Virus record (IMG/VR): IMGVR_UViG_2974515140_000001
Location: 95,280 to 156,130 of that record
Direction: 5' to 3' (one strand)
DNA: 60,851 nt
Source of the DNA: a virus
Taxonomy: Duplodnaviria; Heunggongvirae; Uroviricota; Caudoviricetes; Ackermannviridae
Position numbers and translations under genes: made by a program. The notes under the pieces are model-generated. The model was not told the DNA's origin and did not search any database. It saw nothing but the letters and a program-made list of their open reading frames with translations. Of this stretch, positions 58,576 through 60,594 are shown piece after piece; position 1 is the stretch's first letter; every line of letters starts with the position of its first letter.

Positions 58576-58731
58576 TGGGAGAGTGCGTCGGGAATCGAAC
58601 CCGAAACCGTCAGGACAATGAAAAGCTATTGCATTTCACTTTGCATATCCTCCGGCTTTCTTAACTTCCTTAACCCCAGATTGTTATGAAGTCAGCATGC
58701 ACACCTTCTTCATCTTCAGGAAGTCACACTC
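58576..58731 (-). ncRNA. tRNA-like ncRNA 1 (about 156 nt)
   Basis: Acceptor-like GAGTGTG/CGCACTC (7 bp), canonical T-arm TCGGG-TTCGATT-CCCGA, two expanded internal domains; 3' end TCCCA. Confidence 0.65.
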
Positions 58732-58738
58732 ATTATTC

Positions 58739-58827
58739 TGGTTGCTTCAACTGGATTCGAACCAGTGACCTCAGGCACCTTGTTCTCTCGAAACTTTCCT
58801 GCGCTCTACCACTCGAGCTATGAAGCA
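58739..58827 (-). tRNA. Aberrant tRNA with an expanded anticodon arm (no assignable anticodon)
   Basis: TGCTTCA/TGAAGCA-A-CCA; normal D-arm (AGCTCGAGTGGTAGAGC) and T-arm; CAGG/CCTG enclose 22 nt instead of a normal loop. Confidence 0.7.
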
Positions 58828-58830
58828 ATT

Positions 58831-58919
58831 TGGCGGAAGATGAAGGATTCGAACCTTCGGGGGCTAAAAGCCTCACTCGATTAGCAGTCGAGTCCCTTAA
58901 ACCTCTCGGGCAACCTTCC
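58831..58919 (-). tRNA. tRNA-Ser (GCT)
   Basis: Cloverleaf; CTCGA-CTGCTAA-TCGAG; long variable arm; encoded CCA. Confidence 0.95.
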
Positions 58920-58995
58920 GTATACTGCGCCTCGGTCAAGAATTTTCCAAGCCATGACCTAAATCTGGGTTCTTGACCTGGCCGAGACGACTTAT

Positions 58996-59144
58996 TGGTG
59001 CCCGTTAGAGGGGTTGAACCTCAGCACTCTGGTGATCAACCCAGAGAGTCGCGCCTCATCTATTTGATGGTCAATTTGGGTCTTGCAAAACCTTTACTGA
59101 CCGTCTACAAACAGACTGCTTGACCGAGCGTAATTTGGACGGGC
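58996..59144 (-). ncRNA. tRNA-like ncRNA 2 (about 149 nt, encoded CCA)
   Basis: GCCCGT/ACGGGC-A-CCA; T-arm GAGG-TTCAACC-CCTC; internal hairpins. Confidence 0.65.
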
Positions 59145-59149
59145 TTCAC

Positions 59150-59345
59150 ACCCGATTGTGCATTTGATCTGCCGTAGTCCAACTCCCCGCGCCGAAGCGC
59201 CGATTGGTTAACTGACACCAGTGCCTTCTGGTTCGATCTCCTGTAACTTTACAGGCTTTGCGCCCGACCATTTCTGGAAGTTGAGGCATCGTTTCCGATG
59301 TGGAGTCCCCTCATTTTACACAGCTGGCTGCAACGCTTACCGTGT
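59150..59345 (-). ncRNA. Structured spacer RNA with UUCG and GAAA tetraloop hairpins
   Basis: GCGC-TTCG-GCGC, CATCG-GAAA-CGATG, CCTGTAA/TTACAGG. Confidence 0.45.
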
Positions 59346-59346
59346 T

Positions 59347-59428
59347 TGGTGTGAGTGGATGGATTCGAACCACCGCGTGGGATACCTGATTTACAGTCAG
59401 GCGCATTCGACCGCTCTGCCACACTCAC
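59347..59428 (-). tRNA. tRNA-Tyr (GTA)
   Basis: Cloverleaf; CCTGA-CTGTAAA-TCAGG; encoded CCA. Confidence 0.95.
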
Positions 59429-59434
59429 ATTTAG

Positions 59435-59506
59435 TCTACCGCCGCGTGCTGGGCCACGCTTGAGGACATCGGCCATCCTTCCTCAGCTAATCCACGCGGC
59501 GGTAGA
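59435..59506 (-). ncRNA. Long hairpin RNA closed by a 14-bp perfect helix
   Basis: TCTACCGCCGCGTG (59435-59448) / CACGCGGCGGTAGA (59493-59506). Confidence 0.5.
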
Positions 59507-59574
59507 TTTGGATCAGAGTGTACGGTGTAGCATTCCGCAGGGGTGCACCTACTGTAGCCCTTCCACTCTGAAAT

Positions 59575-59680
59575 TGGTGGGTGTTACTTCCGTCGGGTTC
59601 AGATTCCGTTCGGCTATTGGACTTCGCTTCAAGAGCTTGTCGTTCGCGTACTTCGTGCTTACTTGCTTTCGTTCACACCC
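59575..59680 (-). ncRNA. CCA-ended ncRNA 3 (about 106 nt) with GAA/CGAA repeats
   Basis: GGGTGT/ACACCC-A-CCA; purine-rich interior with 10 GAA and 5 CGAA. Confidence 0.6.
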
Positions 59681-59686
59681 ATTGTT

Positions 59687-59817
59687 TGTCGTCGGGCGGG
59701 GGATTCAAACCCCAATCTTTAGTTTGCGTTTCTTCAAAGCTATCATATGTTCACTTTGAATAATAAACTCCCCTGGACATCATAACAGGATCTCTATTTC
59801 ATCCTGCAAGACCCGAC
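59687..59817 (-). ncRNA. tRNA-like ncRNA 4 (about 131 nt)
   Basis: GTCGGGT/GCCCGAC (7 bp), then G-ACA; T-like arm GGGG-TTTGAAT-CCCC; hairpins CAGGAT/ATCCTG and TTCAAAG/CTTTGAA. Confidence 0.6.
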
Positions 59818-59823
59818 ATAATA

Positions 59824-59899
59824 TGGCGACGATGGCAGGACTTGAACCTGCGACATATGGATTAACAGTCCACCGTTCTACCGACTGAACTACATCGTC
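59824..59899 (-). tRNA. tRNA-Asn (GTT)
   Basis: 76-nt cloverleaf; GTGGA-CTGTTAA-TCCAT; encoded CCA. Confidence 0.95.
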
Positions 59900-60041
59900 A
59901 AATTTTGTGAAGACCAAACGCCGGATCGTAACGGTCGTATGTCTTCGGGTGGCTATCGTTCTTGATGCTTACCATGCGCAGATCATAAGACTGATTCTGC
60001 AGGACATACACCAACCACAGCTGTTTTATAAATTCCATCAT
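59898..60041 (-). CDS. 47-aa ORF inside the tRNA cluster (not in ORF track)
   Basis: MMEFIKQLWLVYVLQNQSYDLRMVSIKNDSHPKTYDRYDPAFGLHKI; GAGG RBS; CTAAATA at 60078-60084. Confidence 0.5.
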   Translation of the reverse strand: MMEFIKQLWLVYVLQNQSYDLRMVSIKNDSHPKTYDRYDPAFGLHKI

Positions 60042-60084
60042 AAAGATACCTCACCAAATTTTATTGAACAACTGGTTTATTTAG

Positions 60085-60160
60085 TGGTGACCCTGGCTGG
60101 ACTTGAACCAGCGACCAATGAATTATGAGTTCACTGCTCTAACCACTGAGCTACGGGGCC
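60085..60160 (-). tRNA. tRNA with CAT anticodon, most likely Ile2 (lysidine-type) rather than Met
   Basis: 76-nt cloverleaf GGCCCCGTAGCTCAGTGGTTAGAGCAG...; closely resembles E. coli tRNA-Ile2 as recalled. Confidence 0.9.
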
Positions 60161-60165
60161 AAAAT

Positions 60166-60266
60166 TGGCGGGGTCTGAGGCTTTTCACCTCACCTGCTGG
60201 ATTGGCCTCCAGCTGTTCTCTCTGGGGACTCGCTGTCCGGACAGCTATCCCTTAAACTATCGCCCC
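60166..60266 (-). ncRNA. tRNA-like ncRNA 5 / degenerate tRNA (about 101 nt, encoded CCA)
   Basis: GGGG/CCCC-G-CCA; D-like TAGTTTAAGG; T-like GAGGT-GAAAA-GCCTC; internal hairpins. Confidence 0.5.
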
Positions 60267-60268
60267 TT

Positions 60269-60383
60269 AATTCATATTGCTGTGGGTAATACCAAGGCGG
60301 AGGTTTGGAATCTCTCGCCCTATAGCGACCTTTAAATCGTTTGATCAGTCCGATCCAAAGGACTACCCACAGCAATATGAATT
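60269..60383 (-). ncRNA. Multibranch RNA closed by a perfect 20-bp helix
   Basis: AATTCATATTGCTGTGGGTA (60269-60288) / TACCCACAGCAATATGAATT (60364-60383). Confidence 0.6.
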
Positions 60384-60384
60384 T

Positions 60385-60594
60385 GTTGTGTCCAATCAAG
60401 GACTGTCAACCTTTTATCCCGTTTGTGCATGATCAGTTCATGCAGGCCTCTTTGTGCGCCTCACGGCAACGCGCTTCTGTAGGTCATTGACTTGCACCGT
60501 AGTCTCACCACAGGCGTTTATTTTTCCAGGGCTTTCCACTTACAAGTCTTAACCAGATCGGGATACGGGCTTGTAAGATCGGATTGGACACAAC
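60385..60594 (-). ncRNA. About 210-nt RNA closed by a 13-bp helix, with a possible pseudoknot
   Basis: GTTGTGTCCAATC/GATTGGACACAAC; CTTACAAG/CTTGTAAG hairpin whose loop TATCCCG can pair with CGGGATA. Confidence 0.55.

Follow-up and report, generated by a model that had tools for sequence, protein, structure and literature searches.

A putative minus-strand RNA island in Kuttervirus: four tRNAs interleaved with at least 12 conserved RNA cassettes

Complex structured non-coding RNAs (ncRNAs) of unknown function, such as GOLLD and ROOL, often lie beside the tRNA genes of phages. The counterparts closest to the locus reported here are two small RNAs with which the T4 tRNA cluster ends, rnaC and rnaD (species 1 and 2), of which rnaC has been verified as a late RNA, with the roles of both stated as unknown by a review and by a 2022 omics paper (PMC3014915, PMC9697503). 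Here we describe a tract of IMG/VR virus record IMGVR_UViG_2974515140_000001, in which four tRNAs and at least 12 non-coding cassettes are interleaved, with all features of the array on the minus strand. On balance, we think it probable that the array forms an RNA island of Kuttervirus, i.e. a tRNA operon in which the tRNAs alternate with conserved and shuffled cassettes that would be processed by the host and act in trans as RNAs. The window analysed is the final 60.8 kb (60,851 nt) of this 156,130-bp record, in which the tract is present only once.

The tract is 99% identical to the Salmonella phage vB_SentM_Phi_10 (Kuttervirus, Ackermannviridae), and its matches extend to 298 phage records, almost all of them from Ackermannviridae infecting Salmonella, Escherichia, Klebsiella, Dickeya, Shigella, Enterobacter and Serratia. 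Read along the minus strand, the units are arranged in the order IR (an inverted-repeat hairpin), B, C, D, tRNA-CAU, a CTAAATA motif, a gene for a 47-aa protein and tRNA-Asn, followed by H, I, J, K, tRNA-Tyr, M1, M2, N, tRNA-Ser, P, Q and a terminator, with B to Q denoting cassettes. Six cassettes (D, H, I, M2, P and Q) have tRNA-like ends, and another six (B, C, J, K, M1 and N) are closed by a terminal helix; CCA is encoded in eight of the ten acceptor-ended units. The cassettes are as follows:

60385-60594, minus strand: cassette B, a 210-nt multi-helix RNA with a perfect 13-bp closing helix (60385-60397/60582-60594)
60268-60383, minus strand: cassette C, 116 nt, a perfect 20-bp terminal helix (60269-60288/60364-60383) around two hairpins
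60166-60266, minus strand: cassette D, about 101 nt, tRNA-like, GGGG/CCCC terminal stem and GCCA end (31 pairs, 3 compensatory)
59687-59817, minus strand: cassette H, 131 nt, tRNA-like, GUCGGGU/GCCCGAC acceptor-type stem and G-ACA end (35 pairs, 1 compensatory, in the T stem)
59575-59680, minus strand: cassette I, 106 nt, purine-rich, GGGUGU/ACACCC stem, discriminator A and encoded CCA
59514-59570, minus strand: cassette J, a 57-nt motif with a 7-bp P1 and a 5-bp P2, both with covariation
59435-59506, minus strand: cassette K, 72 nt, a perfect 14-bp helix (59435-59448/59493-59506) closing off an invariant 44-nt core that contains an inner hairpin
59147-59345, minus strand: cassette M1, a 199-nt multi-hairpin RNA (62 pairs, 51 invariant, 3 compensatory)
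58996-59144, minus strand: cassette M2, 149 nt, tRNA-like, GCCCGU/ACGGGC stem and ACCA end (2 compensatory pairs)
58925-58990, minus strand: cassette N, a 66-nt irregular long hairpin directly 5′ of tRNA-Ser (z -3.4; 1 compensatory pair; Kuttervirus only)
58739-58827, minus strand: cassette P, 89 nt, the body of a tRNA-Ile(GAU) (acceptor, D arm, T arm, ACCA) with a replaced anticodon arm
58576-58731, minus strand: cassette Q, 156 nt, tRNA-like, 7-bp GAGUGUG/CGCACUC acceptor stem and U-CCCA end

A first-pass annotation, made from the letters of the window alone, had described tightly packed modules among four real tRNAs, and both observations hold: neighbouring units are 1-7 nt apart, and ARAGORN and Rfam agree on exactly four tRNAs. 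Its five elements of 101-156 nt with paired ends correspond to D, H, I, M2 and Q, its four T-like arms to those of D, H, M2 and Q, and its three encoded CCA ends to those of D (GCCA), I (ACCA) and M2 (ACCA); a sixth such unit, P, is a complete tRNA body in which the anticodon arm is enlarged. All three of the perfect 13-20 bp helices that the annotation had proposed were recovered, in B, C and K (13, 20 and 14 bp, respectively).

Conservation and folding of the cassettes

In the larger cassettes, no sense frame stays open across the relatives, among which they differ in length by 1, 2, 4 and 5 nt, i.e. not by multiples of three. The earlier description of the region as almost devoid of coding capacity is correct for the cassettes, although it does not extend to the entire tract, which includes the 47-aa phrog_6110 open reading frame (ORF; 60041-59898). 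When the DNA of Kuttervirus was compared with that of Agtrevirus, Limestonevirus or Taipeivirus, cassettes B, D, I, J, K and M1 were found to be 81-97% identical between genera, and Q 70-76%; the corresponding values are 71-95% for tRNAs and 60-75% for the flanking protein genes, and the adjacent tail-needle-knob protein is only 67% identical within most Kutterviruses. These alignments show the cassettes to be non-coding, and to be under purifying selection no weaker than that acting on the tRNAs.

The predicted folds of B, K, J and Q are strongly supported by covariation among relatives, which the first-pass annotation had named as a check on its proposal. Each of these four cassettes was set against 500 shuffles, and also against controls in which the pairing partners were slid by 1-3 columns, whereupon pairing fell to 24-62% and compensatory pairs to 0-4. 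In B, 99.4% of the cells are paired over 49 pairs, 12 of them compensatory (at most 1 in its slid controls); in Q, the 33 pairs are 98% paired, with 10 compensatory ones that include those in the acceptor and T stems; K has 12 compensatory pairs, and J has 7 in P1 and P2. For none of the four was the score reached in any of the 500 shuffles.

The strand on which these structures are likely to operate was addressed by comparing G-U with A-C cells in sense and antisense orientation, and in Q, C, M2, N, H and K this asymmetry clearly points to the tRNA strand. In Q, 63 G-U and no A-C cells are seen in sense, with the opposite in antisense, and in C the G-U cells number 33 against zero A-C; B, whose folding energy does not separate the strands, displays invariant U-G and G-U pairs in sense. 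Folding z-scores are lowest for C (-8.7), followed by B (-5.0), K (-4.7), N (-3.4), M2 (-3.1), D (-2.9) and Q (-2.8). We also searched mechanically for T arms that precede a 7-nt strand able to pair with a 7-mer located upstream; the six hits obtained correspond to the tRNAs, P and Q, versus 0.1 in shuffles; H and M2, with T loops slightly off consensus or 6-bp stems, were identified by eye.

Among the tRNA-like cassettes, Q combines a canonical T arm (UCGGG-UUCGAUU-CCCGA) with two inserted domains, H adds a T arm (GGGG-UUUGAAU-CCCC) and two internal hairpins to its 7-bp stem, and M2 has the T arm GAGG-UUCAACC-CCUC. Cassette D, which is 89-97% identical across genera, folds into three hairpins, the last of which is T-like (GAGG-UGAAAAG-CCUC). 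In cassette I (81-89%), A-to-G changes give rise to U-G wobbles in the terminal stem in most aligned relatives, and the central hairpin varies in sequence and keeps its foldability.

In cassette P, the 17-nt anticodon stem-loop has given way to a conserved arm of about 30 nt, in which CAGG...CCUG closes 22 nt. The same slot, after tRNA-Ser, is occupied by a normal tRNA-Ile(GAU) in phage ECML-4, and by P in the window and in most Kutterviruses. P is also found in the Shigella phage pSb-1 (Gamaleyavirus), in which its arm is nearly letter-identical and the acceptor stem is entirely different in sequence, yet still paired; since the arm was kept while the acceptor was replaced, it is the odd arm that selection preserves. 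P is not called by ARAGORN and has no match in Rfam, and in related phages it is labelled as “tRNA-OTHER” or “pseudo, possible 15-bp intron”. These alignments mark P as a remodelled tRNA whose role is other than decoding, rather than as a pseudogene in decay.

In the helix-closed group, B is 79-92% identical over five genera, contains invariant single-stranded stretches, and offers a candidate long-range pairing, UAUCCCG/CGGGAUA. Its covariance model, R1, finds copies only in Ackermannviridae among the loci searched; membership of B in a family spread over unrelated phages was rejected, as R1 has no copy in the T5-like, Schitoviridae and T4 loci searched. The helix of C undergoes compensatory CU/AG to UC/GA changes in Taipeivirus. 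J consists of an invariant core, GGCUACAGUAG ... GCUACACCG, together with a conserved palindrome of 6-8 nt (GGTGCACC, GTGCGCAC or TGATCA), which in a soil contig is turned into a 6-bp hairpin with a loop. The outer helix of K is represented by three unrelated sequences, in Kuttervirus, in Taipeivirus and in the N4-like Gamaleyavirus E20, surrounding an almost invariant 44-nt core. Pseudoknots are possible in both J (GUAG with the second CUAC) and K (GGCCG/UGGCC), in each case resting on invariant bases. M1 has few variable positions and is 89-93% identical between genera.

Distribution among phages and rival explanations

In a presence/absence table of 20 loci, the cassettes occur in every combination. 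C, H, M2, N and P are each missing from various relatives, sometimes by precise excision: C, for instance, is carried by only some relatives and is precisely excised in others, and H is found in a subset of Kuttervirus and in Limestonevirus. D precedes tRNA-CAU in the window and follows it in the Klebsiella phage KP6 (Taipeivirus, locus L019), and other tRNAs (Trp, Arg, Gln, Ile), as well as HNH or homing endonuclease genes, fill slots in relatives. In Agtrevirus, the slot of C between B and D holds an 80-nt unit which ARAGORN reports as tRNA-Ser(TGA), and which one record labels “tRNA-Undet” (L024:3218-3297, L023:1463-1542); it may be another non-canonical tRNA-like RNA.

Three cassettes, J, K and P, extend beyond Ackermannviridae. 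J is located 5 nt 3′ of tRNA-Lys(CUU) in T5-like Epseptimavirus (Demerecviridae), between tRNA-Ser and tRNA-Met in the N4-like Ithacavirus FSL SP-076, and in tRNA arrays on uncultured contigs, one of which has only tRNA-Tyr and tRNA-His; everywhere it is single-copy and lies on the tRNA strand. The core of K is found in Gamaleyavirus phages (Schitoviridae), within a 1.6-kb protein-free stretch 5′ of a tRNA. In their presence and absence, re-ordering and exchange between phage families, the cassettes show the behaviour of independent genes. No cassette matches any of 5,426 E. coli genomes, and an exact-pattern search of 185,579 prokaryote species genomes found neither the J core nor the K core; a host origin of the cassettes was rejected on these grounds.

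Additional elements of a similar kind were seen in the neighbourhood of the shared cassettes. The 1.6-kb K-core stretch of Escherichia phage E20 contains an unannotated 120-nt tRNA-like element (L028:2739-2858) of the form UACCAGU ... GGAGG-UUCGAAU-CCUUC ACUGGUA ACCA, and pSb-1 contains one of 93 nt (L030:2205-2297); it seems that N4-like phages possess an array of such enlarged tRNA mimics of their own. In the T5-like Salmonella phage bombadil, the roughly 130 nt between J and tRNA-Gly (L026:3066-3195) form a separate module, 90-100% conserved in many Tequintavirus and Epseptimavirus genomes without J, and T5-like tRNA arrays therefore also appear to contain independent non-coding cassettes. 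In PhaxI and vB_Sen_ST2, HNH/endonuclease genes are inserted into the array just 5′ of tRNA-CAU (L016:1677-2318, L017:1520-1933), their 3′ ends overlapping the tRNA start by about 10 nt; this arrangement recalls segB of the T4 tRNA cluster and is probably what drives the mosaic exchange of cassettes.

We considered whether the cassettes might be explained without stable products. They could serve as cis-acting spacers, which steer the processing of adjacent tRNAs, set its timing or protect the precursor from decay, and have no life after cleavage. Such a role would be in keeping with the position of every cassette, which abuts a tRNA or a tRNA-like unit across a gap of 1-7 nt, with the long perfect helices of IR, C and K, which are plausible barriers to RNase III or exonucleases, and with the absence of sigma-70-type promoters within the tract on either strand (2.6 expected). 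Nevertheless, the invariant parts are loops and cores, and not just helices; the sequence is kept despite changed neighbours (J after tRNA-Lys, between tRNA-Ser and tRNA-Met, or after I; D on either side of tRNA-CAU); and the same tRNAs are retained in relatives without C, H, M2 or N. We therefore regard the spacer explanation as improbable. The view that the cassettes are functionless relics, i.e. tRNA genes in decay and leftovers of recombination at a homing-endonuclease hotspot, is less probable still. P does demonstrably come from tRNA-Ile(GAU), with an intact tRNA in the same slot of ECML-4, relatives carry varying tRNA-Trp, Arg, Gln and Ile slots along with HNH/homing endonuclease genes inside their arrays, and in T4, SegB is reported to drive the inheritance of the tRNA region (PMC2330249). 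The mosaicism is probably the work of such a hotspot, which would leave both the conservation and the covariation unexplained: identity across genera is 81-97% for the widely shared cassettes versus 60-75% for flanking genes, compensatory changes preserve helices in B, K, J, Q and C, and the non-tRNA arm of P is nearly unchanged in another phage family in which the acceptor has been fully replaced.

We give very little weight to the idea that the elements act as DNA, be it as miniature inverted-repeat mobile elements, homing-endonuclease targets, operators, or replication or packaging signals. While C is bounded by perfect inverted repeats of 20 bp, and relatives either have it or lack it with precise boundaries, J carries its conserved palindrome, and compensatory change would preserve inverted repeats in DNA as well, the frequent G-U and rare A-C cells in the sense orientation of Q, C, M2, N, H and K are not explained by DNA pairing. 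Nor would DNA-level function account for the T loops, acceptor-type ends and CCA of many cassettes, for the conversion of the J palindrome into a looped hairpin in the soil contig, or for the single-copy state of the region in the genome.

Flanking elements and proposed processing

In addition to the cassettes, the array includes the following features:

60591-60666, minus strand: IR hairpin, 18-19 bp helix across the phrog_23307 stop codon (z -6.1; 2 compensatory pairs in Agtrevirus)
60085-60160, minus strand: tRNA with anticodon CAU (ARAGORN and Rfam)
60078-60084, minus strand: CTAAATA motif, similar to a T4 late promoter, immediately 3′ of tRNA-CAU
59898-60041, minus strand: gene for a small protein of 47 aa, phrog_6110, annotated as Phi10_176 in Phi_10
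59824-59899, minus strand: tRNA-Asn(GUU) (ARAGORN and Rfam)
59347-59428, minus strand: tRNA-Tyr(GUA) (ARAGORN and Rfam)
58831-58919, minus strand: tRNA-Ser(GCU) (ARAGORN and Rfam)
58495-58517, minus strand: intrinsic terminator, 10-bp stem and T run, at the end of the array, 37 nt 5′ of the start codon of the next gene

The array is flanked on the same strand by a small phrog_23307 gene ending at 60625 upstream and by a phrog_4772 gene starting at 58457 downstream, and the strong terminator anticipated at its end was indeed found (58517-58495). The tract is the downstream part of the RNA island: in Phi_10, the island extends about 1 kb upstream of the phrog_23307 gene with short ORFs only (L001:400-1330), and in three relatives (L024, L022 and L021) 1-1.6 kb upstream of B is without annotated genes.

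The anticodon-CAU unit is called tRNA-Met(CAT) by ARAGORN. Among E. coli genes, those annotated as tRNA-Ile are the closest to it (87% identity), so that it is probably a lysidine-type tRNA-Ile2 reading AUA rather than a tRNA-Met. It is labelled tRNA-Met in many phage records. The TGA stop of the 47-aa gene overlaps the first bases of tRNA-Asn, and in relatives its slot holds a different, 65-aa gene (phrog_3684). On the plus strand, a 134-aa ORF (59355-59759) lies opposite tRNA-Tyr, K, J and I; only the purine-rich composition of cassette I keeps it open in relatives, and it was taken as spurious and probably not a gene. This antisense frame accounts for some of the “hypothetical protein” calls in the region.

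At the upstream end, the 3′ arm of the IR hairpin overlaps the 5′ strand of the 13-bp closing helix of B, making the two mutually exclusive over about 12 nt; the inverted repeat itself reaches 26 nt at 88% (60583-60676). The hairpin may give RNase III-type cleavage its point of entry into the array. One may speculate that, given this overlap, cleavage or refolding at this point gates the fold of B, in which case the exclusivity of the two helices could constitute a processing- or folding-dependent switch.

If the array is an RNA island of the kind proposed above, D, H, I, M2, P and Q would be cut out by the tRNA maturation machinery of the host, as in the case of the T4 species 1 RNA, for which expression and RNase P dependence are documented. 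RNase P would generate the 5′ ends, and endo- and exonucleases together with CCA repair would generate the 3′ ends. The helix-closed cassettes, B, C, J, K, M1 and N, would be freed by the same cuts, as in the tRNA punctuation model, since singly or in pairs (B-C, J-K, M1, N) they lie ahead of a tRNA or tRNA-like unit; exonucleases would be kept from their ends by the terminal helices. The 18-20 bp helices of IR and C are long enough that RNase III may add further cuts. The products would be stable small RNAs acting in trans; their invariant loops argue for specific binding partners, most likely proteins of the host or the phage. Neither RtcB, nor a CCA-adding enzyme, nor Ro60/TROVE was found to be encoded by the phage, and T4 Rnl1 was not found either, in a search run without a positive control; as none of these obvious partners is phage-encoded, host proteins are more likely to be the partners.

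Several observations weigh against this proposal. No phage-encoded RNA-binding partner was found among those searched. The CTAAATA motif 3′ of the first tRNA points to more than one transcription start: based on its resemblance to late promoters, it may be an internal or second one, and the 35 nt that follow it are kept in nearly all relatives, with 94% identity in most loci. With such a possible late start, a single transcript, as envisaged in the first-pass annotation, becomes doubtful. The exact CCA is not present in Q and H, and in some relatives the CCA of P is UCA. The terminal stem of M2 gains a C-A mismatch in several relatives, which weakens the support for an acceptor in this cassette. 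Folding energies of B and J do not separate the strands, and few compensatory changes were observed in M1, I, H, N and D, which are mostly too conserved or sparsely sampled. Finally, at the RNA level, low-depth contigs (depth 2-5) of related phages touch the region in two RNA libraries, in which DNA carry-over is possible; in the four runs compared, such contigs cover P/tRNA-Ser/N, I/J/K and M1/M2, and are silent on ends, strand and level. The small shares recorded in wastewater libraries carry no weight as evidence. Our literature search found no transcriptome of an Ackermannviridae phage infection.

Possible functions and relation to known RNAs

The decoy, scaffold and sponge functions suggested in the first-pass annotation are conjecture, and for a protein sponge that presents GGA motifs the sequence argues otherwise: in 1466 nt of cassettes we counted 28 GGA, with 32 expected, and 5 ANGGA, with 9 expected, neither of them enriched, and a sponge of the CsrB/RsmZ type was rejected. 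A more elaborate scenario, to which we assign a low probability, would have the cassettes act as an RNA counter-defence toolkit, with D, I, M2 and Q titrating host immune effectors or toxins that read the top half or the 3′ end of tRNA, P blocking an anticodon nuclease by means of a replacement arm that resists cleavage, and J and K serving as aptamer-like inhibitors of further host factors. If true, it would for the first time suggest what the T4 species 1 and 2 RNAs do.

Irrespective of the exact role, the locus displays selection, covariation, presence/absence variants and cross-family exchange, and thereby offers comparative and genetic handles that T4 never gave: C, H, M2, N and P each have natural “knock-outs”, and J and K are of a size suited to direct biochemistry. 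If the RNAs bind host proteins of tRNA processing, translation or defence, they would represent an RNA layer of the phage take-over of the host, and Kuttervirus, T5-like and N4-like phages are widely used in biocontrol and therapy. The cassettes could also supply several new RNA families for Rfam, and “hypothetical protein” and “tRNA-OTHER” labels could be corrected in hundreds of genomes.

None of the cassettes matches a described Rfam family: at the gathering threshold and at E up to 10, nothing was returned besides the four tRNAs except hairpins that match plant or animal miRNA and plastid models by chance. Against the canonical tRNA model (RF00005), only the four tRNAs pass the gathering score of 29 bits, the best other match being a partial one of 16.1 bits inside Q. 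P retains the ACCA end of a tRNA together with its acceptor, D arm and T arm, and Q, M2 and H keep the acceptor/T-arm minihelix; an anticodon arm with a 5-bp stem and a 7-nt loop is missing from all cassettes, its place in P being taken by a 22-nt loop on a 4-bp stem. The single RNAs GOLLD and ROOL, about 500-800 nt long and found in phages and prophages of Gram-positive hosts, differ from this array of many small units, and their Rfam models do not match the tract. Among the papers covered by our literature search, there was none on ncRNAs of Ackermannviridae tRNA regions.

In having an acceptor/T-arm mimic grafted onto unrelated domains, some cassettes are reminiscent of YrlA/Y RNAs, for which such a build is reported (PMC4201824), and of transfer-messenger RNA (tmRNA). 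A Y RNA was rejected, in the absence of an Rfam match and of Ro60/TROVE in the phage genome, with positive controls detected and host Rsr outside the search. So was tmRNA (RF00023), for which neither ARAGORN nor Rfam gave a call in the tract, and for which both the G3:U70 pair and a tag frame are lacking. Further upstream, in the nearly identical Phi_10 locus, the Rfam tmRNA model gave no more than a partial match of 10.5 bits.

The T4 locus provides the nearest parallel. As in our array, rnaC and rnaD are small RNAs that abut tRNAs on the same strand, and the 139-nt rnaC, with its paired ends, its T arm (CCGGG-UUCGAAU-CCCGG) beside the 3′ strand, and other domains in place of the D and anticodon arms, has the build of Q, M2 and H, among which covariation supports this fold for Q only. 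The resemblance to species 1 that had been recognised earlier is thus one of architecture only, and homology to rnaC or rnaD was ruled out: blastn yielded only T-loop matches of 9-15 nt, and nhmmer profiles of all cassettes found nothing in the T4 locus except weak matches of the P profile to T4 tRNAs. The term “family” used for the cassettes in the first-pass annotation also needs to be qualified, as they share architecture and not sequence, and P is a remodelled tRNA-Ile. The array belongs to a known kind, the stable RNAs of phage tRNA clusters, which have awaited an explanation in T4 for decades; T4 has two such RNAs, whereas the present array comprises about 12, half of them not tRNA-like, and its cassettes are common to several phage families.

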